The notes below the pieces were generated by a model that did no database searches, had not been told where the DNA came from, and saw only the letters and a list, made by a program, of their open reading frames with translations. DNA of 64,000 nucleotides from positions 6,076-70,075 of IMG/VR virus record IMGVR_UViG_3300019477_000133. The stretch is one strand, 5' to 3'. Shown one piece after another: positions 4,654 through 58,347 of this stretch (position 1 is the first letter of the stretch; every line of letters begins with the position of its first letter). This DNA comes from a virus. Position numbers and translations under genes: made by a program.

Positions 4654-4718
4654 ATTATAAAAAATAAGAATGAAATGATTTTTTTCGATAAATATTTTGC
4701 TAATATTAAAAAGAATAT

Positions 4719-4743: not shown

Positions 4744-4754
4744 TTTTAATAAAT

Positions 4755-5228: not shown

Positions 5229-5295
5229 AGATTACGAGGACTGTTATAGATATTTTGTAGCAGTTCCTCATTTTATTTAACCAATACAGAATACA

Positions 5296-5901: not shown

Positions 5902-5915
5902 TATAAATTAATAAA

Positions 5916-9385: not shown

Positions 9386-9502
9386 GTTTTTATTAAAAAG
9401 TAGTTACTTTAATAAATTTATCAATATATTTATTAAAGAGGATATAAAAAATAATAGGACATTTTTATGTTCAATAATAATACTTTTTAGTAAAATATAA
9501 AC

Positions 9503-16526: not shown

Positions 16527-16528
16527 TA

Positions 16529-16555
16529 AAAAAGGTGGTAAGATTACCACCTTTT
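16529..16555. terminator. bidirectional intrinsic terminator between convergent genes
   Basis: aaaaaggtggtaagattaccacctttt perfect hairpin flanked by A and T runs. Confidence 0.6.
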
Positions 16556-16558
16556 ATG

Positions 16559-17035
16559 CTATTTCACTGGTATAATACCTTGAGAAATCATTTTATTAAG
16601 TTTTCTTGCAACTTTATATGTCATAGGGCGTTCATGTTTAAGAATTTTTCTTAACTGAGACTGGGCACCTTCTGGAGTATGAGAAGAAAATACCTTTCTT
16701 GCTGCAGCTGCTAAATCTAAAGTATCCATATTAATTTTAGAAATAATACTATTGGCAAGGTCTTTATTAACTTCAATATTGCTTCGCTTCCAATCATTAA
16801 AGTCATAACGTTGAGTACCACCACCAGAAAGTTTACGTGTTTTAATATCCTTTGTCTTTACAGGTTTCTTCTTATCTTTATTTTTACCACCAACACTATC
16901 AGCAGCCTTATCTCCTTTACGGCTCTTTAAGAAACGTTTAAAAGCATCTAAAACTTCCTTACTAACAGGACGTTTTGCTTCATTAATAAATATCTTATTT
17001 AATTCCTCATTAATTATAGAATCTATTGTATTCAT
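16559..17035 (-). CDS. hypothetical basic (Lys-rich) protein
   Basis: 158-aa minus-strand ORF. Confidence 0.45.
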   Translation of the reverse strand: MNTIDSIINEELNKIFINEAKRPVSKEVLDAFKRFLKSRKGDKAADSVGGKNKDKKKPVKTKDIKTRKLSGGGTQRYDFNDWKRSNIEVNKDLANSIISKINMDTLDLAAAARKVFSSHTPEGAQSQLRKILKHERPMTYKVARKLNKMISQGIIPVK

Positions 17036-17204
17036 TCTTACTTTTATTTAAACTTTAATTATCATATATAAATATTATATCAACCGCTGTTTTAAATAAA
17101 ATATGAATATAAAATAAAAATAAATGTTAATTTTAAAAGATATATTTGGTTTAGTGAAAATAAAATAGTATCTTTGCAACATAAAATTAAAAAAAAATAA
17201 AGAT

Positions 17205-18857
17205 ATGTCACAGAATTTATTTATCGAGGCAACAAAGTACAAACAGTATACTTTTACTGAGAATGGTGCACTTACAATGGCTTCAACAGGAAGCGAGTTA
17301 GCTAATCAGTTTGGTTTAGCTGGTAATTATCGTGGACGTAATATTTCAGATGTATTCTCAGACCAAGAGAAACTTTGGAATGAATCACATGAATATTCTA
17401 CACGTTTTCCTTTCTATCTGCGAATGATTACACGAAAGGTTAAAGTTAATAATGATACCACTACAGACAATGTACAGAGTGGACAAGGTCAGCGTGACGA
17501 AACTTTTAAAAGACTTCTGTGGCTTGCAAAGTATCATAAGGATACTTTCAATAATAACGTGTGGATTTTGCCTCTTATTGGGTCTTGGAAGGATTTATGG
17601 GCTATCATGTATTACGATGAGAAATTTGAAATCAATGCTATTGATAGAGAAATCATCTACAGAATAATTCATGAAGGACTCAAGTGTGATGCACATGTAA
17701 ATCTTGTTAAGAAGTTTATGCCTCGCATTAAGTCAAAATCTCACATTAAGACTGATTGGAATAAGCTTACAAATAAGTATGCCAAAGAATTTGCTAAGTT
17801 ATTCTCATTGTCTTACAAAGAGTATAATCATCTTAAGACTTCTGGAACATCTCATGATTTCCAAAAGTTGATGTGTTCAAGAAATTATGATAAGATTAAA
17901 TGGAATACAATTCCAGGACGTGCATTGAGTATAATTACCAATGGTAAATTCTTAGAGAATCATAACCTTATTGATTCATACACAGAGTGGGTTCTTAAGC
18001 AGGATAATATCAAGTTTACAGGTTATCCATATGAGTTAATCAAAAACTTGAAGAAACATTGTTACATTTATTATAATAGAAAGAATAATATTTCAGTTCT
18101 TCCTAAGTACATTACGACAACCATTAATAAGCAATTTAATGAGTTGATAGAAAAAGGTAAGAATGTCGGTGGTATCAATGGAAATGTATGGTGTGCATTA
18201 GACACATCTGGTTCTATGAACACAGGTGTACATGGTGATACTACAGCATTAGATATATGTCTTTCATTAGGACTTTATTTTTCAACACTTAATACAGGTG
18301 CATTCCATAAGAATGTAATCATGTTTGATGATACCTCTCGTGTATTGCAGCTTAAGGGTGAGTTCTGTGATATGATGAAGCAGATTCCTGATAATGCAAT
18401 GGGTGGAACTAATTTCCAATCAGTTGTTGATGAAATAGTAAGAATAAGAACTAAACATCCAGAGATTCCACTTACAGATTATCCTCAAACACTTTTAGTT
18501 GTATCAGATATGCAATTCAATGCCACAAATAATTATTGGATTCAATCTACAGATGTAGAAAATACGACGAATTATGAAGAGGCTAAGAAGAAGTTGAAGA
18601 GTGTATTCCCAGAGGAATTTGTTGATGAGTTCAGATTCATTTGGTGGAATTGTGCTTCTCGGCATACAGACTTCCCTGCAACAATTAAGGACGGAGGATG
18701 TTATTTCTTGAGTGGTTTTGATGGTTCTATTATTTCTTTACTGTTAGGTGGAGAAGAAGTAGATACCAACACAGGTGAGAAGAAGAAGTTAAGTATGGAA
18801 GAGTTAATGCATAAAGCACTTACTCAAGAGATTCTTAATTATATTGTAGTTGAATAA
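17205..18857 (+). CDS. vWA-domain protein with a TROVE/DUF2828-like N-terminus (Ro60-like architecture)
   Basis: MIDAS motif in WCALDTSGSMN followed by vWA-like alpha/beta segments; ~320-aa N-terminal helical region; promoter tatctttgcaac at 17169. Confidence 0.5.
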   Translation: MSQNLFIEATKYKQYTFTENGALTMASTGSELANQFGLAGNYRGRNISDVFSDQEKLWNESHEYSTRFPFYLRMITRKVKVNNDTTTDNVQSGQGQRDETFKRLLWLAKYHKDTFNNNVWILPLIGSWKDLWAIMYYDEKFEINAIDREIIYRIIHEGLKCDAHVNLVKKFMPRIKSKSHIKTDWNKLTNKYAKEFAKLFSLSYKEYNHLKTSGTSHDFQKLMCSRNYDKIKWNTIPGRALSIITNGKFLENHNLIDSYTEWVLKQDNIKFTGYPYELIKNLKKHCYIYYNRKNNISVLPKYITTTINKQFNELIEKGKNVGGINGNVWCALDTSGSMNTGVHGDTTALDICLSLGLYFSTLNTGAFHKNVIMFDDTSRVLQLKGEFCDMMKQIPDNAMGGTNFQSVVDEIVRIRTKHPEIPLTDYPQTLLVVSDMQFNATNNYWIQSTDVENTTNYEEAKKKLKSVFPEEFVDEFRFIWWNCASRHTDFPATIKDGGCYFLSGFDGSIISLLLGGEEVDTNTGEKKKLSMEELMHKALTQEILNYIVVE

Positions 18858-18917: not shown

Positions 18918-19805
18918 ATGAAAAATTGGGAAAAAATTTTTAATACAATGGTATATTCTACCCTACAATATCTAAATGATTATGGAATTAATAATATGAT
19001 TTTAGGTATTTCTGGTGGTATAGATTCAACACTTGTAGCTGCTATTTGTCATGAAGTGGTAAAACGTTCTGATGGAAAAAAGAAGTTATTAGGATATTCT
19101 CTTATGTGTTCTACTAATCAATCAGATGAAGTAAAAGCAGCAGAAATGGTCGGTAAATCTTTATGCACGGAGTATCAGAGTATTAATTTGGAAGAAGATT
19201 ATAATACTATTTCAAGTAGTTTATCAAATCATTTCAAAGTAGATTCACCAATTGCTAATGGTAATATTAAAGCAAGATTGAGGATGCTATATCTTTATCA
19301 TTGTGCTTCAATTTATAATGGTATAGTTATGGACACTGATAACTATAGTGAACACCAACTTGGTTTTTGGACATTACATGGTGATGAGGGAGACTTTAAT
19401 CCTATTGGCGAATTATATAAGACCGAAATATATGAATTATGCGAATGGCTTTGTACTAAATATTACGTAAATGATAAAGATATCAGGCAAGCAATAGAAG
19501 AATCATATAAATTAACTCCTACAGATGGAAATGGTGTTAAGATGGGTGGTGACATGGCGCAGATTGCACCAGGACTAACTTATAAAGAAGTAGATAGAAT
19601 ACTTTTTGAAACTCAGATATGGGGTTGCCATAAGTATAATGACATCATTCTAAAAAGACTTTCTGAAGAGAAATGGTTTGATGAAGATATTGTCAAAGGC
19701 GTTATTAATAGAGTTAAAAATAGCGCATTTAAACGCAGACATCGTCCATTAAAAATTGATTTGGGGACAGGTGAAATAACACAGCAAATTTGTAAAGAAA
19801 AATAA
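18918..19805 (+). CDS. nadE: NH3-dependent NAD+ synthetase
   Basis: PP-loop LGISGGIDSTLVAAIC; NadE-specific NIKARLRMLYLY...MDTDNYSEHQLGFWTLHGDEGDFNPIG. Confidence 0.8.
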   Translation: MKNWEKIFNTMVYSTLQYLNDYGINNMILGISGGIDSTLVAAICHEVVKRSDGKKKLLGYSLMCSTNQSDEVKAAEMVGKSLCTEYQSINLEEDYNTISSSLSNHFKVDSPIANGNIKARLRMLYLYHCASIYNGIVMDTDNYSEHQLGFWTLHGDEGDFNPIGELYKTEIYELCEWLCTKYYVNDKDIRQAIEESYKLTPTDGNGVKMGGDMAQIAPGLTYKEVDRILFETQIWGCHKYNDIILKRLSEEKWFDEDIVKGVINRVKNSAFKRRHRPLKIDLGTGEITQQICKEK

Positions 19806-23024: not shown

Positions 23025-24179
23025 ATGAACGAAATAATAGAAAACTTCAAGGAAGAAACAGGATATACCCTTATTATCAAGAATGGAGAACTGTTTTATG
23101 ATGGTAATATTGACTTGAGTGGTAGTGAGATTACTCAGTTACCAGATAACTTAACTGTTAATGGCGAACTTATTTTAAGAAACACAGATATTAAAGATTT
23201 ACCTAATAATCTGACGGTTGGTGATTATCTTGAATTATGGAATACACGTATTGAGAGTATACCTGACAACCTTATAGTAGGTGGTTCTCTTTATCTAAAT
23301 GATACAGGTATTAAGTCACTGCCTAAAAATCTGACAGTTGGTGGATATCTTGATTTATCCAATACACGCATCAAGTCTTTACCTGACAACCTTACAGTGG
23401 GCAGCTCTCTTTTTCTAAATAACACAGGTATTAAGTCTCTGCCTGACAACCTTACGGTGAGGCGTTCTCTTGGATTAAAAGATACAAGAATTACCTCATT
23501 ACCAGATAATCTTACAGTGGGTTGTGTTCTTGATATAAGAGATACACGCATTAAATCTCTACCTGACAACCTTACAGTGGGTGACTCTCTTGACCTAAGA
23601 GGTACTGGTGTCACCTCATTACCAGATAGCCTTACGGTTGGTGGAGTTCTTGATATAAGAGATACAAGAATTACAGATAACGTAGAAGTGAATACGACTC
23701 TTTCTCCAGAACAGCAAAAGAAAATTCATGATTTAGAAAATATGGCTCTTTTCTGGGAGAGAAATGGAGTGAGGTATATTAAAGCCGATGGTATTTTCTC
23801 AGTTATTGATTCTCACCATGGTAATGCATATAAGGTACATGCACTTGGACAAGAAGATAATCCACTTTATCTTATCACTGATGGTGAAGGTCATTGGTCA
23901 CATGGCGCTACTCTTGAGGAAGCTAAAGCTGACCTTATATATAAGATTAATGACAGAGATACTTCTGAATATGAAAAATTAACATTGGATGACACTTTAT
24001 CTTATGAGGATGCAATTGCAGCATATCGCTCTATCACTGGCGCATGTTCAGCAGGAACAATAGATTTCATTGAAAACCGATTACCTACACCGCATAAAGA
24101 AAAGTACACCATTAGGGAAATTATTGAGTTGACCAAAAACGAGTATGGAGGTAAAACTTTTGCAAAGTTTTTTGTATAA
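23025..24179 (+). CDS. leucine-rich-repeat protein (20-aa LPDNLTVGxxLxLxNTxIKS repeats) with a conserved C-terminal domain; paralog of 53309-54454 and 55383-56648
   Basis: about 11 tandem 20-aa LRR units; C-terminus ...KYTIREIIELTKNEYG shared with the paralogs. Confidence 0.55.
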   Translation: MNEIIENFKEETGYTLIIKNGELFYDGNIDLSGSEITQLPDNLTVNGELILRNTDIKDLPNNLTVGDYLELWNTRIESIPDNLIVGGSLYLNDTGIKSLPKNLTVGGYLDLSNTRIKSLPDNLTVGSSLFLNNTGIKSLPDNLTVRRSLGLKDTRITSLPDNLTVGCVLDIRDTRIKSLPDNLTVGDSLDLRGTGVTSLPDSLTVGGVLDIRDTRITDNVEVNTTLSPEQQKKIHDLENMALFWERNGVRYIKADGIFSVIDSHHGNAYKVHALGQEDNPLYLITDGEGHWSHGATLEEAKADLIYKINDRDTSEYEKLTLDDTLSYEDAIAAYRSITGACSAGTIDFIENRLPTPHKEKYTIREIIELTKNEYGGKTFAKFFV

Positions 24180-35351: not shown

Positions 35352-35915
35352 ATGAAAATAGGATTTTTGCTTGGTAGTTTCGACCCGATACATATTGGTC
35401 ATGTGCAAATGATTAATAGTGTTCTGAATAGTGGCTTTGATAAAGTTATAGTTGTACCAACTGTTCAGAATCCATGGAAGGATTCTAAAGCTACTGATTT
35501 TGCTTATCGTTGCCAAATGATAGAGAATGCAATTTCACATTTTGGAGATAAATGCTGCCTTTCTAAGGATGAATTATTGGTTGATGGTACAAACTATTCA
35601 TATAAAGTATTATCGCTTCTTAGAGAGAAATACAAAGACAATGAGTTATTTATCATAGCTGGTTCTGATTGTGTTAATGACATACCGAAATGGAAAAATT
35701 ATAATTCAGATATAGAACCATATTTTTCTATTGCTGGATTAAAAAGAAATAAGACGGATGAAATTCCAGATTATGCGATACCAATAGAACAAGATATTGT
35801 TATTCCTATTTCCTCGACATACATAAGACGAATGGTAAAAGAAAAGAAAATTTTTTTTCCATATATAAATGCTGAAAATGAAAAGTTGATAAAAAAGTTG
35901 AATTTGTATCATTAA
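35352..35915 (+). CDS. nadD: nicotinate(amide)-nucleotide adenylyltransferase
   Basis: N-terminal nucleotidyltransferase motif GFLLGSFDPIHIGHV (GxFxPxHxGH). Confidence 0.7.
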   Translation: MKIGFLLGSFDPIHIGHVQMINSVLNSGFDKVIVVPTVQNPWKDSKATDFAYRCQMIENAISHFGDKCCLSKDELLVDGTNYSYKVLSLLREKYKDNELFIIAGSDCVNDIPKWKNYNSDIEPYFSIAGLKRNKTDEIPDYAIPIEQDIVIPISSTYIRRMVKEKKIFFPYINAENEKLIKKLNLYH

Positions 35916-36258: not shown

Positions 36259-37227
36259 TTAATCTTCAATTGGTTTGATTAAATCTTTGTATTGTTCCCA
36301 ACCATTAGTTGCATTTTTGTATGCATCTACAGAATCTCTTGGAACAAGTACTTCTTTAAATTGCCAGCCACGTTCTATCGTAGGTGGCTCTTTAGCTAAA
36401 ATAGTTAATGATAGGTTGCTTCTATTAGTAGAACGACTAATATATTTAATTGTTGCTGGTAATGTTAATGTTTCCAATGATGTACACATTGAAAATACAT
36501 CATTTTCAATCCTTTCTAAATTGGTCGGTATAATTACTTCGGATAAACTCGGACAATCTGAGAAGAGAAGTCTATTCAACGTTACAAGATTACTAGGAAG
36601 TATGACACGTCTTAATAAGTGGGAATGATAAAACACAGCATAACCTAAATCAGCATTTGAACCAGTTTCAAAAACTACTTCGGTCAATTTAGGACAATAT
36701 CCAAATGCTGTAGCTATTATTCTTTCTAATGTATTTGGAATAAAAACTGTTTGTATATTAGTTTTTTCAAAAGCTTGATTGTATATCGTTTTTACTGTTC
36801 TTGGTATTGTAAGCGACGATATTGATGTATTATACAACATTTTGTTACCGATTACATCTCCTGTAAAATGAGTCATATCAGCTTCAGTAATTAATTTACT
36901 ATTATTTCCTTGAAATACTGTTGTAAAAGTATAACGAAATTCACCATCACAATCTAAAATGTTCCACCCTTTTTGTAATAATACGTCTTCTTCTGAAACT
37001 TTTAAGATTTCATCAGATAACAATGGATTAATCTTAACACCATCACCATCAACATAAAGTCTTATATAGTTATTGAGAGATGGTTTATTATAACTTACCC
37101 CCCCCCCATTTAGTACATAACTGACATGTGGTTCAATGTAATCTGAAGAGTTTAAGAATACATCACTTACTGATTTTTCTGCAAATAATTTTAAATGTTT
37201 CATATATACAATTTTAGTTATTATCAT
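36259..37227 (-). CDS. BspA-type leucine-rich-repeat surface protein
   Basis: repeats IPNTLERIIATAFGYCPKLTEVVF / LPSNLVTLNRLLFSDCPSLSEVIIPTNLERIENDVFSMCTSLETLTLP; contains a G10 tract on the coding strand. Confidence 0.6.
   Translation of the reverse strand: MIITKIVYMKHLKLFAEKSVSDVFLNSSDYIEPHVSYVLNGGGVSYNKPSLNNYIRLYVDGDGVKINPLLSDEILKVSEEDVLLQKGWNILDCDGEFRYTFTTVFQGNNSKLITEADMTHFTGDVIGNKMLYNTSISSLTIPRTVKTIYNQAFEKTNIQTVFIPNTLERIIATAFGYCPKLTEVVFETGSNADLGYAVFYHSHLLRRVILPSNLVTLNRLLFSDCPSLSEVIIPTNLERIENDVFSMCTSLETLTLPATIKYISRSTNRSNLSLTILAKEPPTIERGWQFKEVLVPRDSVDAYKNATNGWEQYKDLIKPIED
37098..37107 (-). repeat. homopolymeric tract: C10 on the + strand, G10 on the coding strand, encoding GGG inside the LRR gene
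   Basis: read directly: ttaCCCCCCCCCCattt. Confidence 0.8.
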
Positions 37228-37441
37228 TAATAAATATCTATCTGAATATATAATTTAATATTTGTTAACTATTAATATTTGGATAAATAAAAACATTTAG
37301 TTAACTTTGCAATTGTTATTTGAAAAGATGATGAAATAAAAAAAATTAGTAAATTAGACATAAATATGATGCATGATAGTAAATTTTTTAAAAGTAAAAT
37401 ATATTTTAAATGTTTGTTTTTCAACAAGCTATAGATAGTAT

Positions 37442-37741
37442 ATTGTTAGAAGTATTGTACCGAAAGGTAATCACAACTTGTGGGACATGGAGGAAAAACG
37501 ACCACTTATTGTTAGAAGTATTGTACCGAAAGGTAATCACAACTATGTCGCAGAACTATCAATTGAAACTGGAATTGTTAGAAGTATTGTACCGAAAGGT
37601 AATCACAACGGACAACAAGCAGATAACACACGTTATAAGATTGTTAGAAACTCTTTACCGCAAGGTAATCACAACGTAGGGCAAAAGACAATTAACGCCT
37701 TGAATGTTGTTAGAAATAATATACCGCAAGGTAATATAAAG
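37442..37741 (+). CRISPR. CRISPR mini-array 1: five 36-nt repeats (ATTGTTAGAAGTATTGTACCGAAAGGTAATCACAAC; the last two degenerate) and four 30-nt spacers; the repeat 3' end GGTAATCACAAC is Cas13b (VI-B)-like
   Basis: exact 66-nt periodicity, spacers all 30 nt and unrelated to each other; repeat hairpin TACC-GAAA-GGTA with a GNRA loop; repeats degrade toward the 3' end. Confidence 0.85.
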
Positions 37742-38112
37742 TCAAACCGTTACAATTTGTAACACCTTTTAAAAAAATACATATTAAACATATGACAAAT
37801 CAAGAAGAATATAATATAATAATGTCTGTAAAAAATAAAATAAAAAAACAGATATTAAGAAATTCATATCAGTTACAAAAGTTAGACATGAAGGATTACC
37901 CGATATATTATTTTCTTTCTTAACAACGAAAGAAAATGTATTAGATTACACTATTAGCTATAAACTATCCAGATATTCAAATACAGAAAGTGTTGTTATA
38001 TCATGTGGAGTTTTATCTGGCAATATTAGTAAGTTAGTTAACTTTTTTACAACAGTATGTAAAATATTAGATGATTCCCAATATTATAATATTGAAATAA
38101 TAGATTTAAAGG

Positions 38113-38727
38113 ATGAATAATTTTTCAATTAAAGACAATAAAGGACAAGAACATTGGATTAGTCGTTCTGTTAGTGTGGTCATGTTTGTGTTTTGCAAGA
38201 ACTTGCGTGGAGAATGGTGTGTCTTGGCTTCACAGCGTGGCGAAGGCACTCCAGACCCAGAGTATATAAATGCATGGAATTGTCAGTGTGGTTATCTTGA
38301 TTATAACGAAACAACCAAAGAAGCAGCACAACGTGAGACATTGGAAGAAACAGGAATAAAAGTACCATCACATTTAATTAAGTTTTGGTCCTTTAATGAT
38401 AACCCTAACGATGATAAACGTCAAAATATTACATTTAGATATTATGCGGTGTATCAGCATGCAATTATTGATGACTTTAAGTTTTCAAAACAGAATATGG
38501 AGAAGAACGAAGTCGGTGCGATTACTTGGGTTAACCTAAAAAATATAGATAAAATGCGTTGGGCGTTTAATCATGACAAACTGATTAAAGGTGCTGCAGT
38601 GAAAGCAGGTATTATACCTTTTAAAATGAAATTACGTTTATGGTGGGAAAATTTTAAATTAGGATTTCGCACAAGATTAATTGAGTTACGTCAAGAATTT
38701 CATCAAAAAGACAACTTTATATATTAA
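38113..38727 (+). CDS. Nudix hydrolase
   Basis: Nudix box GYLDYNETTKEAAQRETLEETGI (GX5EX7REUXEEXGU). Confidence 0.65.
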   Translation: MNNFSIKDNKGQEHWISRSVSVVMFVFCKNLRGEWCVLASQRGEGTPDPEYINAWNCQCGYLDYNETTKEAAQRETLEETGIKVPSHLIKFWSFNDNPNDDKRQNITFRYYAVYQHAIIDDFKFSKQNMEKNEVGAITWVNLKNIDKMRWAFNHDKLIKGAAVKAGIIPFKMKLRLWWENFKLGFRTRLIELRQEFHQKDNFIY

Positions 38728-42900: not shown

Positions 42901-43881
42901 ATGGAAGATTTAGTTACAAAGCAACTTAGGAAACGTTTCCTCAAGGATTTTAATCTACCTATCCAAGTAATACAAGACCCTTACTTTACAGAGCGTCTTG
43001 AACTATGCGGTGCTACTCAAGATTATAATAATCTTCTTGAATACATCGACACCAATTATAGTGGTAGTTATAGAGCATTCTTAGATGCTTATGCACAAAT
43101 AAGAGATGAAATTGTTACTTCATGTTACAACTCAGAAGCGTTTAAACTGTTCAACAACAGTGACATTAAAGGTGAAAATCCATTGATTCCACAACGGAAC
43201 TTGTATACTGAAGAACAAGATGGAAATAGTTTTGTAAGCGTTGATTTAAAGAAAGCAAACTTTCAAGCACTTAAATATGTTAATTCCGAAATAGTCCTTA
43301 ATACTGATACATATGAAGGATTTATAGGAAAGTTCACGGATAGTGAATATATTAAGAAGTCAAAATATACAAGACAAGTTATCTTTGGAAAACTTAATCC
43401 GAAAAAGACAATTAGTATAGAGAAACGTATTATTAATAAAATTTATAAGACGCTTAATGATAAGTTCAATCTGACTGAATATTTAGAACCATATTCTATG
43501 TGTACAGATGAAATTATCTACAAAGTGAAAGATAACAATAATAACGTATTGACAGATTTGCTGTGTGATAAATCTTTAATGATGATGGAACAAATTATTA
43601 AAGACACACTCGGGTTTGAAGTACGCATTAATTATTTCGGTCTTAAGTTACATCAATTCAAGCTTGCTACATCGGAAGCAAAAGTCAATTCTTTCACTAA
43701 ATTGAATCATGTAACAAATGAGGTGTCTTATGCGTGTATTCCATCTACATACTATCCACAGATTTACAAATTAATTAATGGTTTAGATGTAACTAAGAAT
43801 GACCTTGTTTTTTATTATGAACATGAGTTGGCGACATTCTTAAACCCATTGGTAAAATTAAATAAAGATAATGAAATTTAA
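42901..43881 (+). CDS. hypothetical protein
   Basis: 326-aa ORF after the promoter acctttgcaacat. Confidence 0.5.
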   Translation: MEDLVTKQLRKRFLKDFNLPIQVIQDPYFTERLELCGATQDYNNLLEYIDTNYSGSYRAFLDAYAQIRDEIVTSCYNSEAFKLFNNSDIKGENPLIPQRNLYTEEQDGNSFVSVDLKKANFQALKYVNSEIVLNTDTYEGFIGKFTDSEYIKKSKYTRQVIFGKLNPKKTISIEKRIINKIYKTLNDKFNLTEYLEPYSMCTDEIIYKVKDNNNNVLTDLLCDKSLMMMEQIIKDTLGFEVRINYFGLKLHQFKLATSEAKVNSFTKLNHVTNEVSYACIPSTYYPQIYKLINGLDVTKNDLVFYYEHELATFLNPLVKLNKDNEI

Positions 43882-45172
43882 AATCAAAGATAAAAAGATA
43901 GAAAAAACCATCCATACAATACGTGCACTTATCAAAGGAACCAAATTTGAAGGTGTTACGTATGTTGTAGGTGGTTTTGTACGTGATACGTTAATGGGAG
44001 AAGTATCTAATGATTTAGACATTGTTGTTAATCTCCCGTCTGGTGGAATAGATTTAGCGAATACTTTAACAGAGTTGGATAATAGTCATAGTGACTCTAA
44101 TCCTATTGTATATCCTAAGTATGGTACCGCAAGCTTTCATTTAAAGAATAATGATGAATATTCTGATGTTGTTATTGAGTCTGTGGAAACACGGAAAGAA
44201 CAATATCATTCAGAATCACGTAATCCAGAAACATGTTTTGGAACTTTAGAAGAAGATGCATTTAGAAGAGACCTTACAATTAACGCATTGTATTACAATA
44301 TCTCAACAGATAAAGTAGAAGATGTTACTGGAAAAGGACTTGATGATTTGAAAAATCATGTTATCAGAACTACAAATGATAACCCTAACATAGTTTTCTT
44401 TGATGACCCATTGCGTATAATGAGAGTTATCAGATTTGCAAATAGATATGGCTGGAATATAGAAGAGAAGACGTGGAAATCATTGCAAGAATGTGCTTCA
44501 AGAATAAAGATTATTTCTAAAGAAAGAATACGTAATGAGTTGAATAAGATAATTGCCAATAAAGACTGTATAAATGGTTTGAATTATTTAAAAGATAGTG
44601 GTATTTTATCTTATATTCTTCCCGAACTATTTGAACAATGTTTTGTTCCATGTTCACAGGACTTTAATAGTATGTTTGATAAAATAGTTACAATATGTAG
44701 TCAAGCACCTATATGTTTATATACTCGTCTTTCAATTCTATTATCATTTTGCAAAACAGATAGCGCATGTGAAACTATTCTATCTCATCAAAAGCAACCG
44801 AATGTAATAATAAAGCATGTGCAGAATGCACTGTTAGGTAAAAACTTCAGAAGAGAAGACGAAGAATTAGAAGTATCTTTACGTAGATTATATAAGAAAT
44901 GTAACCAAAATATAGATAATGCATTATGGGTGTATCGAGTTTTTACAGATGAAGAAACTTATAACGAAACGGTAAATACGTGGCTAAAGATAAAAGATAG
45001 TGCTAAAATTTATCTTCCGATAGATGGAAATGAAATCTTCTCATATCGTGCAGATATTACAAATAATGACAGAAAATTATTAATTGATTATCTACACGAA
45101 GAACAATGCAAAAATCCTTTCTTAACAAAAGAAGAATGTGTTGAATTAATTAAACAATATCAGTTACATTAA
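43871..45172 (+). CDS. cca: tRNA nucleotidyltransferase (CCA-adding enzyme) / poly(A) polymerase family
   Basis: head-domain motif YVVGGFVRDTLMG...NDLDIVV (GGxVRD ... DxD); FRRDLTINALYY matches motif RRDxTINA. Confidence 0.7.
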   Translation: MKFKIKDKKIEKTIHTIRALIKGTKFEGVTYVVGGFVRDTLMGEVSNDLDIVVNLPSGGIDLANTLTELDNSHSDSNPIVYPKYGTASFHLKNNDEYSDVVIESVETRKEQYHSESRNPETCFGTLEEDAFRRDLTINALYYNISTDKVEDVTGKGLDDLKNHVIRTTNDNPNIVFFDDPLRIMRVIRFANRYGWNIEEKTWKSLQECASRIKIISKERIRNELNKIIANKDCINGLNYLKDSGILSYILPELFEQCFVPCSQDFNSMFDKIVTICSQAPICLYTRLSILLSFCKTDSACETILSHQKQPNVIIKHVQNALLGKNFRREDEELEVSLRRLYKKCNQNIDNALWVYRVFTDEETYNETVNTWLKIKDSAKIYLPIDGNEIFSYRADITNNDRKLLIDYLHEEQCKNPFLTKEECVELIKQYQLH

Positions 45173-45967: not shown

Positions 45968-47149
45968 ATGATTAAATCAATTTTAGATACAGATTTGTAT
46001 AAATTCAGTACTTCATATGCTTATTTTCATAAGTTTAATAGAGCGGAGGGAACATTTAAGTTTAACGACAGAAACAAAGAAGATTGGAGAAACTATCCAA
46101 ACTTTATGGATGAGATTGAGATACAAATTGAAAACTTATCCAATATTCGTCTTACAAATGAAGAAAGAGATTGGTGTGTTGAGAACATTGATTATATACC
46201 AGAGAATTATTGGGAATGGCTAAGTACTTTTCGTTTCAAACCAGAACTTATTAAGATGTGGCTGGATGACGATGGTGTCTTCCAGTGTGAGGTGACGGAT
46301 AAACTCTATCGTGTGACATTATATGAGATAGCTATTCTTGCCACATATGCCGAAGTAAGAAATCGAGTATTAGGAAATAAGATTAACATGGAGAAAACTA
46401 TGTTAAAATTAGAAGATAAGATTTCTTATGCTAATATGAATAGCCTCTGTTTTTCTGAATTTGGAACACGTAGACGATATAGTTTTAATGTACAAAATGA
46501 AGTCGTTAAACGACTAAAAGAAAAGTGCCCTGTATGTGCTGGAACAAGTAATGTGTATTTGGCAAAGAAACACCACATGCGACCTACTGGTACATTCCCT
46601 CACGAATGGATGATGTTTCATGCTGCTGTGTATGGATATAAGCGTGCGAACTACATGGGGCTTGAGGACTGGATTGATGTATATGAAGGTAATCTTGGTA
46701 CTGCGCTAATTGATACATATACTACTGAGTCGTTTCTTAGAACCTTAACCTTGCAGCAAGCTTTGCTTTTGAGAGGTTTCCGCCAAGATAGTGGTGATGA
46801 GTTTAAGATTGGTAATATGATTATTAAACGTTTACAAGAATTAGGAATCGACCCTAAGACTAAATTGCTTATCTTCTCAAATGCCCTTACATTTGAAAAG
46901 TATAAAGAAATTCATGATTACTTTAATGGACGTATTATGGTCTCAGCTGGAGTTGGCACAAATCTAACTTGTGATACAGATATCAAAGATTACAAACCAG
47001 CAAATATTGTCATGAAATTATCAAGAGCGAGATATAGTAGTAAAGACCCTTGGGAAAAGTGTATCAAAATTAGTGATGATATAGGCAAACACATGGGAGA
47101 TGCTAAGGAATTTGATAAAGCCATGAGTGATTTGCATTTGTCTGAATAA
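45968..47149 (+). CDS. pncB: nicotinate phosphoribosyltransferase
   Basis: N-terminus ILDTDLYKFSTSYAYFHKF matches the NAPRTase signature (LDTDxYKxxM). Confidence 0.7.
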   Translation: MIKSILDTDLYKFSTSYAYFHKFNRAEGTFKFNDRNKEDWRNYPNFMDEIEIQIENLSNIRLTNEERDWCVENIDYIPENYWEWLSTFRFKPELIKMWLDDDGVFQCEVTDKLYRVTLYEIAILATYAEVRNRVLGNKINMEKTMLKLEDKISYANMNSLCFSEFGTRRRYSFNVQNEVVKRLKEKCPVCAGTSNVYLAKKHHMRPTGTFPHEWMMFHAAVYGYKRANYMGLEDWIDVYEGNLGTALIDTYTTESFLRTLTLQQALLLRGFRQDSGDEFKIGNMIIKRLQELGIDPKTKLLIFSNALTFEKYKEIHDYFNGRIMVSAGVGTNLTCDTDIKDYKPANIVMKLSRARYSSKDPWEKCIKISDDIGKHMGDAKEFDKAMSDLHLSE

Positions 47150-48925: not shown

Positions 48926-49204
48926 ATGAAAAAGATTATATTATTATTAGTATTAGTATCTTCATTGATGTTAACTGCTTGTGAAAAAGCAGGAACACCA
49001 GTACAAACTAATGGAGCAAAACATGAATTTGATGTACAACTTCTATTTGAAGTTGATGGAGTAAAAGTATATCGCTTCTTCGATTTAGGAGAATATATTT
49101 ACTTTACTAATGCCAATGGTAAGACATCATATGTAACGGGCAGTAAAGTTAGTGAAAGAAAGACGAGTCTTAATAACAGATTAGAAAATGATGACAATGA
49201 TTAA
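48926..49204 (+). CDS. small lipoprotein
   Basis: MKKIILLLVLVSSLMLTACEKAG. Confidence 0.45.
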   Translation: MKKIILLLVLVSSLMLTACEKAGTPVQTNGAKHEFDVQLLFEVDGVKVYRFFDLGEYIYFTNANGKTSYVTGSKVSERKTSLNNRLENDDND

Positions 49205-49709
49205 AGATAAATTAGATGAACTGATTAAGAATGCAACCAAGTCAGGAAATGTTAACGCAAGAAGAATACTTAAACTCTTCAAATCAGAATTAATTGATTA
49301 TACTTTAAGTGAAATTAAAGATTCGCAAATTCAAGTACCAACTAATCTAACTGATGAAGAGAAAACAGAATACATCTCCAATAAGAAGAAAGAAATGAGA
49401 ACACTGACTGATGCAGTGGAAATAAATATTCTTCAAAAGTTGATTAAGAAACTGAACGATGAATTAACTTATGCCATTAAGTTGAATAGATATGAAACTG
49501 TAAATGATGTAAATGAACAACTCTTAATTCTCAAAGAACTTCTCCCTCCACAACCATCAGAGAATGAAATTGTGGAATTTATTAATAACGAATTTCCAAA
49601 TGGTTTCACTAAGAAACAAATGAGAGATGTTATAACAAGTGTGAAAAATAAATTCTCTTGTATAGATGGTGGATTAGTTGCGAAATTGTGTAGTAGCTTA
49701 GCAAAGTAA
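49188..49709 (+). CDS. hypothetical protein
   Basis: 173-aa ORF. Confidence 0.4.
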   Translation: MMTMIKDKLDELIKNATKSGNVNARRILKLFKSELIDYTLSEIKDSQIQVPTNLTDEEKTEYISNKKKEMRTLTDAVEINILQKLIKKLNDELTYAIKLNRYETVNDVNEQLLILKELLPPQPSENEIVEFINNEFPNGFTKKQMRDVITSVKNKFSCIDGGLVAKLCSSLAK

Positions 49710-49818
49710 TAGAATAAAAAAAAATGAGTAGAAGTTCTGTAAAAGTGATGTCTTATAGTTATTTTTTGAAATTAAAATCATATATAAATACTTATATATC
49801 AGTCACTTATACAGAGCC

Positions 49819-50249
49819 TACTGTTAGAAACGTTAAACCGCAAGGTAATCACAACGTCAATCATGGTAATGAATTGGCAATAAACACTGTTAGAAACGTT
49901 AAACCGCAAGGTAATCACAACTGTAACGTAATTGTCTGAAATATTTGTATTACTGTTAGAAACGTTAAACCGCAAGGTAATCACAACAGCACTACCAATT
50001 ATTATTTGATTTTTTTACTGTTAGAAACGTTAAACCGCAAGGTAATCACAACAGTCATTTACTAATTCAAATACTTCAATCGACTGTTAGAAACGTTAAA
50101 CCGCAAGGTAATCACAACGGCGTGGCAAGTGTTAAGGCAGCGTCTGAGACTGTTAGTAACCATTTACCGAAAGGTAATCACAACAATTATGACATTGCAA
50201 GGGAAGTAATGAAGACTGTTAGTAATATTAAACCGAAAGGTAATTCAAA
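49819..50249 (+). CRISPR. CRISPR mini-array 2: seven 36-nt repeats (ACTGTTAGAAACGTTAAACCGCAAGGTAATCACAAC; the last two degenerate) and six spacers of 29-30 nt
   Basis: five identical repeats then two decayed repeats; hairpin AACC-GCAA-GGTA; followed by hairpin ggggt...acccc. Confidence 0.85.
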
Positions 50250-50301
50250 GGGGTTTAATTCGACCCCTATATAAAATAAAGAAATTAAACATATTATATT
50301 T

Positions 50302-54472: not shown

Positions 54473-54937
54473 ATGACAAAGAAAGATATTATAAATTTTT
54501 TAGAAAAGTATAATGATGACGATGAATTGTGTATCGTTTTAGATGAAGATAAAGAGAACAACTTTGTTTATACATCTAAAGAAAAAGATATGCTTGGTGT
54601 ATATAAGGAAGTTATCCGATTCCTTTCAGAAAATCATATAACATTCGATATCATGGCTTTATGCGAAATGATTTGTTCTGACAATATTGATAGTCTCTAT
54701 TCTCTTGGATATGTGAATGTAAATCATGTAATCAAGGATAATAAATTACATTTCAGAATATCTCCAAAAGACTTGGAAGAAAATGATAAACTTGAAGATG
54801 TACTTTTCGACTACCAAGATGGTATGGGCATATATCAAAGAACTCAATGGGAAGATAGCTATTATGGTTATTTACTTCTTCCATTAGGTACTGGTCTTCG
54901 AATGGATAGATTCTTTTGCGTTTATTTTACGTGCTAA
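54473..54937 (+). CDS. hypothetical protein
   Basis: 154-aa ORF. Confidence 0.35.
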   Translation: MTKKDIINFLEKYNDDDELCIVLDEDKENNFVYTSKEKDMLGVYKEVIRFLSENHITFDIMALCEMICSDNIDSLYSLGYVNVNHVIKDNKLHFRISPKDLEENDKLEDVLFDYQDGMGIYQRTQWEDSYYGYLLLPLGTGLRMDRFFCVYFTC

Positions 54938-55113
54938 AAATTAAAAATAATATAATATATGACACAAGAACAACAAATTTTCATTGCAACTTTACACTTT
55001 GTAACTTCATGGGCGGTGAGAAATGGTAAAAGCCCAATAGATATACCTGAAGATGTGCTAAAACAATATAAAGAAGAAGCAGAAGTTTTATGTAAAGTAT
55101 ATAATCTGTTGTA

Positions 55114-55410
55114 ATGGAACAAATTATTTGCTCTGCCATTTGGTATAATGATAACAATTACTATCCACATCAAGAAATATATGGTGTGGATAGTGGATTT
55201 GTAATTGGTGGTTTTAGACATAATAATATTATTGGTGCTTTTCCTACCAATAATAAACATAGAAATGATGAGAAAGAATATAAAACTATACAAGGATTTA
55301 TAACATCTACTGGTAGATTCGTGGATAGAAAAGAAGCAGCTGTAATCGCATATAATTCAGGTCAAATTAAAGAACAAGTTAAGTGGTTATTTTCCGAAGA
55401 TTTATATTAA
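55114..55410 (+). CDS. hypothetical protein
   Basis: 98-aa ORF. Confidence 0.3.
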   Translation: MEQIICSAIWYNDNNYYPHQEIYGVDSGFVIGGFRHNNIIGAFPTNNKHRNDEKEYKTIQGFITSTGRFVDRKEAAVIAYNSGQIKEQVKWLFSEDLY

Positions 55411-56648
55411 ATAGTATGACGAATAGTGAAATTATACTTAAATTCAAAGAAGAATATAATAAAGAACTTCAATATATTGATGAACGCTTTATTTGTGATG
55501 GAGATATAACGATTACTCATAAAGATGAAGTTTGGTTGCCAAACAACTTAACTATCAATGGATGTTTAACTATCAAGTTGTGTTGTTTAGTATTTCTTCC
55601 AGACAACCTATATGTTAGAGATGATATTTGTGTTGAATGTTGTAAAATTCTATTGATTGGTAATCATACAACATTTAACGGAGTTACCACTATTTCATAT
55701 TGTTATATAACTTCATTACCAACAAACTTAAAATTAAACGGAAGTGTCAATTTATCATTTTTACCATTAAGAATATTACCTGACTGGAAAGAAATAAATG
55801 GAACTTTATCTATTGATAATGTATCTATTGAAGAATTACCAAAAAATTTGATTATTAAAGGTTATCTAAATATAAAAGGTGGCTCTTTGAATAAACTTCC
55901 AGAAAATTTAGTTGTGTATAATACAATTGATATATCAATGAGTAATATAAGTGAGTTACAAAATGGATTAATATGTAGAAATATAATTTTACCTGATAAT
56001 AGGGTTTGCTTCCCAGAAGAATTTATCGCTATAGATTCGTTAAAAGGAACACCTGAAAGTTTACGGGGTCTATCATTACTTAAATGTCCAACACGTAAAT
56101 TGATTGTAGATAAACCTTGGTTATTCAAACCTAAACATAAATCACAATATGAATACTTTAGTAGAGAAAATAGAGAATTATGGGTATTAAAAAATTTAGG
56201 TGTTATCTGGAAAATTAATGGCAAAGAATATTTTCATAGCGATTATGATTCTTTTTTAGGTGAAATAATTGAACAAAATGATAATGTGTTTAAAATAAGG
56301 CATTTCTATAATAATAAAGAATACGTAGTTACAACTGATGGGGTTGATAATTGGGGAAGAGCAGAAACTGTGGAAGAAGCAAAGAGCAATCTGAACCAAG
56401 TACTTAAGAGGAGATATGTCCACGACTACAAATATTATACACAAGCAAAACGTCTTTCTATCTCGGATATATCAGAGTGTTTTCAAAACATCACAGGTTT
56501 AAGTCAAACTGAAACTTTTAATACTCTTTATAAAGTTCTACCAAAACCAATCCAAGATACATATACAATTGGAGATATAATGGAATATACATCAGACGAA
56601 CATTGCACTTTCAATTTTACAGAATATTTTAAAAATAAAAATGAATAG
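55383..56648 (+). CDS. LRR-like protein with a conserved C-terminal domain (paralog family)
   Basis: LPDNLYV / LPKNLII repeats; C-terminus DTYTIGDIMEYTSDE. Confidence 0.5.
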   Translation: MVIFRRFILNSMTNSEIILKFKEEYNKELQYIDERFICDGDITITHKDEVWLPNNLTINGCLTIKLCCLVFLPDNLYVRDDICVECCKILLIGNHTTFNGVTTISYCYITSLPTNLKLNGSVNLSFLPLRILPDWKEINGTLSIDNVSIEELPKNLIIKGYLNIKGGSLNKLPENLVVYNTIDISMSNISELQNGLICRNIILPDNRVCFPEEFIAIDSLKGTPESLRGLSLLKCPTRKLIVDKPWLFKPKHKSQYEYFSRENRELWVLKNLGVIWKINGKEYFHSDYDSFLGEIIEQNDNVFKIRHFYNNKEYVVTTDGVDNWGRAETVEEAKSNLNQVLKRRYVHDYKYYTQAKRLSISDISECFQNITGLSQTETFNTLYKVLPKPIQDTYTIGDIMEYTSDEHCTFNFTEYFKNKNE

Positions 56649-56736
56649 AAGACATATAATATTGATATATAAAGGTGAATTTTTGAGTTTTATTTTCTCT
56701 GTAAACAATTATATATTAAATACTTACATGTAGTTT

Positions 56737-57102
56737 ACTGTTAGAAGTATTATACCGCAAGGTAATCACAAGAAATCAATTGACGATATAATGAGAATTG
56801 ACACTGTTAGAAGTATTATACCGCAAGGTAATCACAACATGCACGAACATTTCAAAGGTTTTAATTACGTTGTTAGTAATCCTTTACCGCAAGGTAATCA
56901 CAACGAACACCCTGCACACTATTGAAGAGAACGAGTTATTAGTAATACTATACTGAAAGGTAATCACAACTACAATTGGTCATACCTCAGACGTGCAGCA
57001 ACTGTTAGCAATACTGTACCGCAAGGTAATTACAATGAGATAATCGTGGACCATTATACACGTGCTGATTTTAGTAATACCTTACCGAAAGGCAACTACA
57101 AT
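56737..57102 (+). CRISPR. CRISPR mini-array 3: six 36-nt repeats (ACTGTTAGAAGTATTATACCGCAAGGTAATCACAAC, progressively degenerate) and five 30-nt spacers
   Basis: exact 66-nt periodicity; spacers unrelated to each other; repeats decay toward the 3' end. Confidence 0.85.
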
Positions 57103-57179
57103 TCATAGAAAACTATTATTAACGCAATATCTTAAGAAAAAAGATACATAATTATTTGGTATTTACTAAATTTATTCGT

Positions 57180-57204
57180 ATCTTTGCAATGTTAATTTAA
57201 AACA
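57180..57204 (+). promoter_or_regulatory. promoter; exact duplicate of the 4719-4743 25-mer, with a -7 TAnnTTTG box
   Basis: gtatctttgcaatgttaatttaaaa. Confidence 0.5.
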
Positions 57205-57212
57205 TAAATAAA

Positions 57213-58004
57213 ATGGAAAAGGAAATTACACCTCATGAGTATTTTCTACAGTTAAAGACTAATGTAGAAAGTATTGACAATGAAAAGTTAAAGCAATCAT
57301 TTAATAACATCTGCTTATTGGCAGAAAAGTATAAAAAGACAGGTCAAATTAAATCTTTGGAGAAACTTAAATTCCTTGCAGAAGTAATGCAGAAGGAAGA
57401 AAAGTTGTTGGAAATTGGCGTTGATAAATTTATTTATAGAAGTGTTATCGAAGATTATATTGATAATGTTTCAAAAGATGTAGTAAAGATACAAGATTTG
57501 GAAGTGTACATGCGTGAGGTACCAGATGAAATCGTAGAAGTTATAGAAAAAACAAAAGACATCTTTGATAAATTTTATGTAGTGTTTACTGATTATACTG
57601 GTCAAGAAGAAAGAAAAGTAGAACAAGAACGTAGAGATAGAGACCCGATTCTGTTTGGTGTTTTTACCGATAGAAAAGTTGTGTCTGATAGATTCTATTA
57701 TCTGGGTGATTGGGAGGATGAATTTTGTGACCTTACATTAGATAAATTGGTTGCTGAATATAAAGCTGAGAAGCATCAAGACCCAGCAATAACTATCACA
57801 ATGCCTGCTACGACAGATGAATTGATTAATACTCTTAAACAATATACTGAAACTAACAAGAGCAATACACCTGACGATATTCATCGTAATAATAATCATT
57901 TTACATTAAGTAGCAATCGGGATTTATCATCAAATGAATATTTTAAAAAGAATAAAGGTTTCTTTGGTCGTATAAAATCCATTTTCAGTAAAAATGAAAA
58001 GTAA
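57213..58004 (+). CDS. hypothetical protein
   Basis: 263-aa ORF. Confidence 0.45.
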   Translation: MEKEITPHEYFLQLKTNVESIDNEKLKQSFNNICLLAEKYKKTGQIKSLEKLKFLAEVMQKEEKLLEIGVDKFIYRSVIEDYIDNVSKDVVKIQDLEVYMREVPDEIVEVIEKTKDIFDKFYVVFTDYTGQEERKVEQERRDRDPILFGVFTDRKVVSDRFYYLGDWEDEFCDLTLDKLVAEYKAEKHQDPAITITMPATTDELINTLKQYTETNKSNTPDDIHRNNNHFTLSSNRDLSSNEYFKKNKGFFGRIKSIFSKNEK

Positions 58005-58344
58005 TGTTGATTTAACCATAAATAGAGATTTTTCAAGACGTTTGTTAAATTTAGACATAACAGATACTCGTTTAGAAGGAAGAAGAAAACCTTTTGACCA
58101 AGATGAAATAGAAGATTTTGTCTATATCGCACCATGGTTTCCAAAAGGGAAAAGAGTTATGTGGCAAGGAAACAATTACTTTGAGACAATAGAATATGAA
58201 TGTGTCAAAGAAGACGAAGAAAAAATTCCTTGGAAATTTAATAACCCAAATTGTAATATAGATGATTATTATGAATCATGGTTTACCGAACATTTATTTG
58301 ACAAACCAGTGATTAAAAGTGAAACTGAGATATTAATTAGATAA
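57994..58344 (+). CDS. hypothetical protein
   Basis: 116-aa ORF. Confidence 0.35.
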   Translation: MKSNVDLTINRDFSRRLLNLDITDTRLEGRRKPFDQDEIEDFVYIAPWFPKGKRVMWQGNNYFETIEYECVKEDEEKIPWKFNNPNCNIDDYYESWFTEHLFDKPVIKSETEILIR

Positions 58345-58347
58345 TGT

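Follow-up and report, generated by a model that had tools for sequence, protein, structure and literature searches.

CRISPR-Cas loci (short palindromic repeats, clustered and regularly interspaced, with their associated cas genes) have been described in phages before. The Vibrio phage ICP1 carries a type I-F locus that targets a satellite of the host and has its own cas1 and cas2-3, while the systems of huge phages are usually without cas1, cas2 or cas4 and have compact arrays (median six repeats) with anti-phage spacers, some of these arrays standing without any effector (Al-Shayeb et al. 2020, PMC7162821). The viruses SPV1 and SPV2 carry mini-arrays of one or two spacers whose repeats are identical to those of the host system (Medvedeva et al. 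2019; PMC11656645, PMC8616872). Two further systems come close by other traits: the type I-Fv (I-F2) system of Shewanella putrefaciens CN-32 (Cascade structure, Protein Data Bank 5O6U) and the type VI-B systems of Bergeyella zoohelcum and other Bacteroidota, whose effector is Cas13b, a protein of about 1100-1200 amino acids with two HEPN domains. Here we analyse three CRISPR arrays in a 64,000-nucleotide (nt) stretch of a viral genome (IMG/VR record IMGVR_UViG_3300019477_000133, positions 6,076 to 70,075; this whole stretch is called the window, and its positions are counted from its first base). We think it likely that these are true CRISPR arrays of an I-Fv-like type I system, that this system belongs to a family of ~200-310 kb Bacteroidota jumbo phages, and that the arrays were orphaned in this phage by deletion of the cas operon. 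Use in conflicts between sibling phages is the best-supported role of the system in the phage family.

Compared with the I-Fv system of S. putrefaciens, the operon that adjoins these arrays in related viral contigs (hereafter siblings) has a Cas6 of the general family (TIGR01877 / PF01881) rather than Cas6f, a Cas3 that is not fused to Cas2, no cas1 that was found, the gene order cas3-cas6-cas7-cas5 and repeats of 36 instead of 28 nt. It is also phage-borne, with up to three or four dispersed arrays, and none of its genes lies in the window. The motif at the 5' flank of type I-F protospacers is CC/GG, whereas the apparent 5' flank of the phage protospacers reads YY-N. Phage-encoded CRISPR-Cas is what the family has in common with ICP1 and the huge phages; what differs here is that the operon is I-Fv-like, that siblings with it (cas+) and without it (cas-) exist side by side, that its loss is visible as a chimeric array, and that several spacers are aimed at the cas genes of rivals. 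As in SPV1 and SPV2, the arrays sit in a virus without cas genes, spacers of the family match close relatives and superinfection exclusion is an applicable idea. However, each window array contains 4-6 spacers, a number that rises to 9 or more in siblings, no host array with matching repeats was found, and the matching effector is encoded by sibling phages and not, as far as seen, by the host. With VI-B the arrays share the 36-nt repeat, the 30-nt spacer, a locus without cas1 and cas2 and a near-identical 3' repeat end (...AAGGTAATCACAAC), but the phage has no cas13b, its repeats have neither the 5'-GUUG nor the poly-U loop, their 5' 20 nt are unrelated, and the neighbouring genes in siblings are class 1. 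In literature searches we found no description of an I-Fv-like phage operon of this kind, of its VI-B-like repeats, of a cas+/cas- polymorphism with a chimera scar, or of spacers aimed at rivals' cas genes.

Searched with a degenerate repeat pattern, the whole window yields 18 sites, all on the plus strand, where shuffled sequences lead one to expect 0.02. They form three same-strand arrays with 15 spacers in total, which are listed here with their flanks.

37228..37441, plus strand: leader of array 1, intergenic, following a minus-strand gene for a BspA-type leucine-rich-repeat protein
37442..37741, plus strand: CRISPR array 1, in which five 36-nt repeats, the last of them degenerate, enclose four 30-nt spacers
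37749..37769, plus strand: weak terminator-like hairpin GTTACA-ATT-TGTAAC followed by a T-run, directly 3' of array 1, as read from the sequence
49710..49819, plus strand: leader of array 2, alignable with the leaders of arrays 1 and 3
49820..50250, plus strand: CRISPR array 2, seven repeats, of which the first five are identical, with six spacers, including one of 29 nt
50251..50268, plus strand: hairpin GGGGTTTAATTCGACCCC, directly 3' of array 2, as read from the sequence
56649..56736, plus strand: leader of array 3, homologous to the siblings' leader of a 2-repeat mini-array that precedes cas3
56737..57102, plus strand: CRISPR array 3, six repeats and five spacers, a chimera

The repeats of array 1 occupy 37442-37477, 37508-37543, 37574-37609, 37640-37675 and 37706-37741, with a start-to-start period of exactly 66 nt and four unique 30-nt spacers between them. 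Repeats 1-3 are identical (ATTGTTAGAAGTATTGTACCGAAAGGTAATCACAAC), repeat 4 has an altered 5' half and the loop GCAA instead of GAAA, and the terminal repeat 5 has a degenerate 3' end (GGTAATATAAAG). An earlier reading of this DNA, made by a model from the letters alone (the original prediction), had described five 36-nt repeats with 30-nt spacers at these coordinates, a decay of the repeats at the leader-distal end, and two more arrays further on. The coordinates and the period were verified, repeat 5 has indeed lost its 3' end, and the other two arrays are real, at 49820-50250 and 56737-57102.

The three leaders can be aligned over ~110 nt, which in array 1 are the last ~110 nt, and the leader of array 3 is 81% identical over 210 nt to that of the mini-array before cas3 in the sibling contig L055 (L-numbers denote fetched loci, with L001-L010 bacterial and the others viral). 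Because the gene upstream of array 1 (the BspA-type protein, 36259-37227, minus strand) is on the opposite strand, array 1 must have its own promoter. Its leader holds TAACTTTGC at 37302-37310, a Bacteroidota-type -7 box (TAnnTTTG) that lies 132 nt before the first repeat. A scan for sigma-70 promoters and terminators around array 1 was uninformative for a Bacteroidota-type host, and a consensus terminator scan did not call the hairpin at 37749..37769, which has too few G-C pairs. Rfam at gathering thresholds returned only tRNAs in the window and no CRISPR-DR family, and blastn of the region 36-39 kb against a cultured-phage collection gave no match.

The type of these arrays is indicated by what stands beside them in siblings. 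The pattern of the repeat's 3' 12-mer (GGTAATCACAAC) occurs in IMG/VR in 44 stretches on 29 contigs, and many of the contigs have between two and four arrays. Long stretches of flanking DNA in many of them show 85-97% identity to the window, with arrays placed at the same three sites. Of the 29 contigs, 14 carry a four-gene operon, cas3-cas6-cas7fv-cas5fv, or parts of it, beside arrays of the family, a count that comes from small sampled flanks. Its first gene encodes a protein of ~800 amino acids (aa) with Cas3_HD, DEAD and Cas3-like_C_2 domains, HD first and with no Cas2 part, and its second a Cas6 of ~230 aa that scores above the cutoff of TIGR01877 (also PF01881; not Cas6f). The family profile of the third product, ~380 aa, matches Cas7fv of the S. 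putrefaciens I-Fv Cascade at E=1.2e-30, and this protein also matches PF28157 (Cas7fv-like). The siblings thus have the Cas7fv and Cas5fv backbone, without Cas8 or Cas11. In L034, L055, L021, L056, L131 and L136 cas3 adjoins the same arrays; it is absent from the window, for which the original prediction had correctly reported no cas gene in the 64 kb, the largest open reading frame (ORF) being a 937-aa tail fibre. No cas1, cas2 or cas4 was seen in the array flanks of the viral contigs. For Cas7 in IMG/VR a single-protein query was used, since an alignment-based run was swamped by a low-complexity lysine pattern and gave 3 loci only. Judged by these domains and profile matches, the sibling operon is a minimal I-Fv/I-F2-like type I system with no large subunit, a general-family Cas6, an unfused Cas3 and 36-nt repeats.

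A distant variant of the operon occurs at L057:7582-12532 (IMGVR_UViG_3300021077_000115, 392 kb), where the place of the general Cas6 is taken by a 186-aa protein of the Cas6e/CasE family (PF08798), which follows cas3-cas7-cas5; in the flank seen, arrays with repeats of this family were not detected.

Array 3 preserves the trace of the operon's removal. In L055, a 222-kb contig, the order is a homolog of the window gene at 55383, a 2-repeat mini-array, cas3, cas6, cas7fv, cas5fv, a 6-repeat array and a homolog of the window gene at 57213. In the window, the two flanking genes are separated by array 3 alone.

55383..56648, plus strand: 421-aa ORF, left synteny anchor, 86% aa identity to the L055 gene that precedes the mini-array and cas3
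56803..56838, plus strand: junction repeat of the cas-operon deletion, with the body of the mini-array repeat and the last base of the main-array repeat (C, not G)
57213..58004, plus strand: 263-aa ORF (phrog_10081), right synteny anchor, 94% aa identity to the L055 gene after the main array

Repeat 1 and spacer 1 of array 3 (AAATCAATTGACGATATAATGAGAATTGAC) equal the mini-array unit that precedes cas3 in L019, while spacers 2-5 equal, but for point changes, the L040 and L054 spacers 3, 6, 7 and 8 in the array downstream of cas5fv. The switch can be placed within one repeat: repeat 2 of L019 ends ...CACAAG, whereas the junction repeat of the window ends ...CACAAC and is followed by ATGCACGA... 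as in L040. Array 3 is therefore a chimera of mini-array and main array, and recombination between repeats deleted ~6 kb of cas genes. L041, also cas-less, is a second chimera and derives from another mini-array allele. Both a cas+ (L136) and a cas- (L137) contig encode a protein identical to the one at window 62654-63634, and since they share this 100% identical neighbouring protein, the loss is recent. A 210-kb cas- sibling contig has no Cas7 match anywhere, and ~10 kb beyond the right end of the window hold no cas gene.

The array-3 region is a hotspot of structural variation. L134 (ENA ERZ27318940 k141_354820, 4335-6226) lacks everything that corresponds to about 54473-58344 of the window, which comprises array 3 together with three ORFs and two genes downstream. 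In cas+ and cas- siblings alike, array 3 is always followed by three genes, of 263, 116 and 176 aa (window 57213-58878). Because of these sizes a hidden cas1/cas2/cas4 module (g57213-g57994-g58348) was considered, a candidate that we rejected as the genes have no Pfam or NCBIfam matches. The 263-aa protein (phrog_10081, annotated 'transposase') belongs to a family of 1583 phage clusters, and its AlphaFold2 model (pLDDT, the predicted confidence score, 67) matches helical hairpins only and no Cas1-like fold.

Spacer content shows that the arrays of the family have been turning over. From all loci we extracted 72 arrays, counted per locus so that some are re-fetched overlaps of the same contigs, with 173 unique spacers. 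At site 2 the siblings L032, L027 and L030 have their trailer-end spacers in common and differ in their leader-end spacers, and leader-proximal repeats are identical within an array; such leader-end gain over a shared trailer end is the signature of polarised acquisition. The spacers of window array 1 have none in common with four sampled syntenic arrays (siblings L029, L049/L050 and L053), and in window array 2 only the last spacer is shared with a sibling (L033). Family spacers have a GC content of 36.6%, compared to 31.2% for the phage.

The targets that could be found lie in siblings. Matches to sibling phages at 26-30 of 28-30 positions were obtained for 11 of the 173 unique family spacers. 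Two of these match the window itself, at 49241-49270 (30/30) and at 57368-57397 (28/30, in the 263-aa ORF), and four match cas genes of rival variants. One spacer fits a rival cas7 at 30/30 positions and its own cas7 at 27/30, with the mismatches at positions 2, 5 and 8, in the type I seed. Spacers of the mini-arrays before cas3 match rival cas3 alleles at 26-28/30 and their own cas3 at 21/30, and a spacer of the cas- contig L137 matches a sibling cas5fv at 26/29.

L055:6628-6729, L034:1689-1790 and L019:739-840: mini-arrays before cas3, with targets at L127:5013-5042 and L128:5008-5037, 6093-6122

The mini-array before cas3 may serve to attack the CRISPR loci of rivals, or else act as an autoregulatory guide. 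The 11 protospacers lie on both strands, 7 antisense and 4 sense, and in their 5' flank every best match has a pyrimidine at position -2 and most have one at position -3. In this small sample, which includes several imperfect matches, the features would fit DNA targeting with a 5' protospacer-adjacent motif (PAM) and a PAM-proximal seed.

The repeat itself is built in two parts. Its 3' 14-16 nt stay the same in every operon clade and in all three arrays of one genome, whereas the 5' half varies. At repeat positions 17-28 lies a hairpin, UACC-GAAA-GGUA, followed by exactly 8 nt, AUCACAAC, that are nearly invariant; the core pairs 19-26 and 20-25 of the hairpin hold in 91-99% of unique repeats. 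Cas6-processed class 1 repeats (type I and type III) leave an 8-nt 5' handle, and by analogy the layout seen here is that of such repeats, with a predicted cleavage site at the 3' base of the hairpin.

From these observations we propose the following mechanism. Each array would be transcribed from its conserved leader, and Cas6 would cut at the 3' base of the short hairpin, leaving AUCACAAC as an 8-nt 5' handle. Cas7fv and Cas5fv would then assemble on the CRISPR RNA (crRNA), and Cas3 would degrade matching DNA of competing sibling phages, often in their cas genes. In the phage of the window, recombination between a mini-array repeat and a main-array repeat removed the operon and so orphaned all three arrays, whose crRNAs could work only with proteins supplied in trans, by a co-infecting cas+ sibling or conceivably by host Cas13b; otherwise the arrays may be recent relics.

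Several points weigh against this interpretation. The window has no cas gene, so that nothing in it can use the arrays, and of this genome only the window and ~10 kb beyond its right end were inspected. The hairpin has only 3-5 base pairs, and its outer pairs 17-28 and 18-27 hold in 72-78% of unique repeats and fail in 22-28%. The PAM signal comes from 11 protospacers, among which several are imperfect matches. In the array flanks of siblings no adaptation genes were found that could supply new spacers, and the strong 3' identity to Cas13b repeats is not explained by a type I model alone. Finally, for none of the window's own 15 spacers was a target found in the ~2 Mb of fetched sibling loci or in cultured phages. 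IMG/VR scans with the A1s1 and A2s5 spacer cores returned nothing, the scan with the A3s4 core returned sibling arrays only, and a metagenome scan, with A2s5 only, gave one match that fails at all free positions and was taken as chance. The suggestion in the original prediction that mini-arrays act against competing phages thus gains from the family spacers that match siblings, and not from those of the window.

The resemblance to Cas13b repeats had led the original prediction to a type VI-B assignment. It had given the B. zoohelcum repeat correctly: that repeat ends ...GGAGGGTAATCACAAC, and its array adjoins a verified Cas13b of 1224 aa. A scan of one genome per species, 185,579 species genomes in all, for GGTAATCACAAC at array spacing recovered 10 bacterial loci, including B. 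zoohelcum ATCC 43767. All have Cas13b-type repeats, which read GTTG...TTTGRARGGTAATCACAAC, and in four of the loci the large ORFs beside the arrays are Cas13b by NCBIfam NF038190 (794-853 bits, cutoff 150). The proposed comparison with bacterial genomes therefore did recover Cas13b-type arrays, yet these differ from the window in the 5' 20 nt. Set against Cas13b-linked repeats of Bergeyella, Chryseobacterium, Sphingobacterium and Bacteroidales, the last 16 nt of the window repeat are identical at 14-16 of 16 positions, while the first 20 nt agree at 5-10 of 20, with ~6 expected by chance. The 36/30-nt format is shared with VI-B as well (spacers in the family number 233, with 173 of 30 nt and 28 of 29 nt).

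VI-B repeats have complementary 5'-GUUG...CAAC-3' ends and a poly-U loop (Smargon et al., bioRxiv 10.1101/092577). The window repeats have the CAAC-3' end but start with AUUG or ACUG, and they carry ...GUACCGAAAGG... where Cas13b repeats carry ...AUUUUGRARGG..., with no poly-U loop, so that the likeness noted by the original prediction, in the format and the 3' end, is real but partial. Among 69 unique family repeats the terminal helix is partly kept, with pair 1-36 in 38%, pair 2-35 in 52% and pairs 3-34, 4-33 and 5-32 in 83-94%; the internal Cas13b-type stem is not maintained, pairs 13-25 and 14-24 holding in 32% and 46%. The ...ACCGMAAGG repeat type was in none of the 10 bacterial loci recovered. 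A hidden Markov model built from 5 verified Cas13b proteins found nothing in the window or in loci L011-L054, a motif-limited IMG/VR scan for Cas13b returned no relative, and no Cas13b was found in ~2 Mb of sibling phage DNA. HEPN RxxxxH motifs are absent from window ORFs of at least 250 aa except for one in a CCA-adding enzyme. For csx27 and csx28 there was no relevant Pfam or NCBIfam match among the scanned array-flanking ORFs, in which no search was aimed at them.

On the minus strand, the array region of the Bergeyella locus L001 has normal repeats alternating with 'long direct repeat' units (CTCATGAATGCAAAGCATTTGGAGGGTAATCACAAC), which recur at spacings of 118 nt and more. Such units were described by Smargon et al. 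(bioRxiv 10.1101/092577).

The alternatives can now be weighed. That the arrays borrow a host VI-B effector, with host Cas13b making spacer-plus-repeat crRNAs and cutting the transcripts of competing phages, strikes us as unlikely. The format, the 3' 16 nt that match repeats beside verified Cas13b genes and the three well-kept pairs of the terminal helix speak for it, as do a host that is probably Bacteroidota or Prevotella-like, a group that includes Cas13b carriers, and the circumstance that cas-less phages have no effector of their own. It would also suit the 7 of 11 protospacers that are antisense to genes, and VI-B loci likewise have no cas1 or cas2 and acquire spacers in trans (PMC8092290). 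However, no Cas13b was found in the window, the sibling loci or the motif-limited IMG/VR scan, the 5' half of the repeat, its start, its loop and its internal stem depart from the Cas13b type, and the same arrays flank a class 1 operon in siblings, with array 3 being the deletion scar of that very operon. The 4 sense protospacers would be useless for RNA targeting, although the mixture of strands alone does not rule out Cas13b, because VI-B arrays can acquire spacers without strand bias (PMC8092290). In addition, none of the 70 bacterial Cas13b spacers tested, taken from L001-L010, matches these phages; an attempt at host assignment with them gave phage matches of at most 21 nt. The other proposal of the original prediction, an RNA anti-CRISPR decoy whose repeat transcripts soak up host Cas13b or a rival's Cas6/Cascade while the spacers are irrelevant, seems very improbable to us. 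RNA anti-CRISPRs made from repeat units are known in viruses (PMC11656645), and the cas-less phage does keep 18 repeat copies. Nothing specific supports the decoy, however, and 4-6 spacers per array, turnover at the leader end, a strict 30-nt length and 26-30/30 matches to siblings are the traits of guide arrays, which in siblings belong to a complete effector locus.

It could also be that the arrays of the window are non-functional relics, the operon having been lost so recently that there was no time for decay. The identical neighbouring protein in cas+ and cas- contigs would agree with this, as would the inheritance of the array 3 spacers with point changes only, the failure to find a target for any window spacer and the loss of the entire array-3 segment in variant L134. 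We nevertheless rate it as improbable, given that all arrays have been retained in two or more independent cas- lineages (those of the window and of L041), where the leader-proximal repeats are identical and the leaders conserved. Window arrays 1 and 2 moreover hold 4 and 5 spacers unseen in the sampled siblings, which suits relics only if all of these pre-date the loss. Hardly credible, finally, is a translated protein of 22-residue tandem repeats. Since 66 nt make 22 codons, long ORFs do run through array 1, one of 89 aa (37410-37679) and one of 94 aa (37478-37762), and the original prediction was mistaken in reporting stop codons in all frames. Its conclusion that coding is unlikely stands on other grounds: array 2 and sibling arrays include spacers of 28, 29 and 31 nt, which disrupt the frame, array 3 is not covered by any ORF of at least 60 aa, and from one sibling to another the spacer segments are unrelated, with flanks that are 85-97% identical. 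We rejected the protein-coding reading on this disruption of the frame in syntenic arrays.

TnpB proteins of 408-418 aa (OrfB_IS605 with Cas12f1-like TNB and helix-turn-helix domains) were found ~110 nt upstream of some viral arrays, on the same strand.

L035:1511-2764, minus strand: TnpB, with its array at 1032-1397
L023:9655-10908, minus strand: TnpB, with its array at 9241-9540
L036:3834-5057, minus strand: TnpB, with its array at 3491-3723

These TnpB-adjacent arrays have the most Cas13b-like repeats of the viral set, so that the repeat family occurs with three kinds of effector. The pairs could be an intermediate on the way from transposon to type V, or an insertion sequence (IS) that landed beside an array. 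TnpB/IS605-family elements, some with serine resolvases, also occur at differing sites in siblings (L053:10649-12304; L034:30-1673; L135:4461-6089; L131:13640-14827 and 16246-17451), and from these varying insertion sites it follows that IS elements are active in this phage family.

The likeness of the 3' repeat end to VI-B could be due to a shared dependence on the same host Cas1-Cas2, by analogy with Flavobacterium columnare, in which dependence of VI-B on II-C Cas1-Cas2 has been shown (PMC8092290). A broader version of this idea, which we hold to be doubtful, is that one 36/30 repeat family ending in …AAGGTAATCACAAC is common to Cas13b, to the phage Cas3-Cas6-Cas7fv-Cas5fv Cascade and to TnpB, with the repeat ends fixed by shared host adaptation machinery; use of such shared machinery is suggested because all three kinds of effector come without their own cas1 and cas2. 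In addition, the cas-less phages may be 'CRISPR cheaters' whose retained arrays provide crRNAs that load the Cascade-Cas3 of a co-infecting sibling (or host Cas13b) against that sibling, whose cas genes would make a safe non-self target.

The rest of the window is consistent with a large phage. Its ORFs are nearly all on the plus strand, its GC content is ~30%, and besides 16 tRNA genes (8547-34138) it has genes for two structural or assembly proteins (a tail fibre and a head maturation protease), for a sigma factor and for an exonuclease. In IMG/VR the contigs of its close relatives reach 210-312 kb. TATCTTTGC, again of the Bacteroidota-type TAnnTTTG -7 box, stands just upstream of plus-strand genes at 28 sites where 16.3 are expected. 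The best cultured match of the protease is to Prevotella Lak megaphages (50.5%), and the Pnkp-like protein is closest to Fusobacterium phages (43%). Judged by the size of its relatives, the window is part of a jumbo phage, and the promoter boxes and the protease similarity to Lak phages make a Bacteroidota, Prevotella-like host probable.

Two groups of genes and two tandem repeats were also noted. The first group is an RNA-repair set made up of a Pnkp-like kinase-phosphatase-RNA ligase, a CCA-adding enzyme, a YqeY/GatB-like protein and a phrog_850 'RNA-binding' protein; the second consists of scattered genes of nicotinamide adenine dinucleotide (NAD) metabolism, namely a NadE-like NAD synthetase, an NMN (nicotinamide mononucleotide) adenylyltransferase-like protein, a Nudix hydrolase and a NAMPT-like protein.

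59006-61153, 43871-45172, 49188-49709 and 17205-18857: RNA-repair set
18918-19805, 35352-35915, 38113-38727 and 45968-47149: NAD-related genes

We speculate that the tRNAs and the RNA-repair set could protect against damage to tRNA or RNA by, for instance, HEPN RNases like Cas13, and the NAD genes could serve NAD reconstitution against NAD-depleting defences. A 42-nt tandem repeat lies within the 937-aa tail-fibre ORF (9791-10348), and a 60/120-nt repeat (23198-23673) within the ORF at 23025-24179.

These results correct a tempting misassignment, in that a Cas13b-like repeat alone is insufficient to infer Cas13b. They bring out a family of large Bacteroidota phages with its own minimal I-Fv-like CRISPR-Cas system and several dispersed arrays, in which cas+ and cas- siblings occur naturally and the route of cas loss can be read from an array chimera. 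The shared 3' end of the repeat raises the question of whether systems without cas1 and cas2 converge on the repeat of one host adaptation module, and a compact four-gene Cascade-Cas3 could have practical interest. With spacers aimed at siblings, both CRISPR conflict between phages and the fate of arrays after loss of their effector become directly testable in this family.

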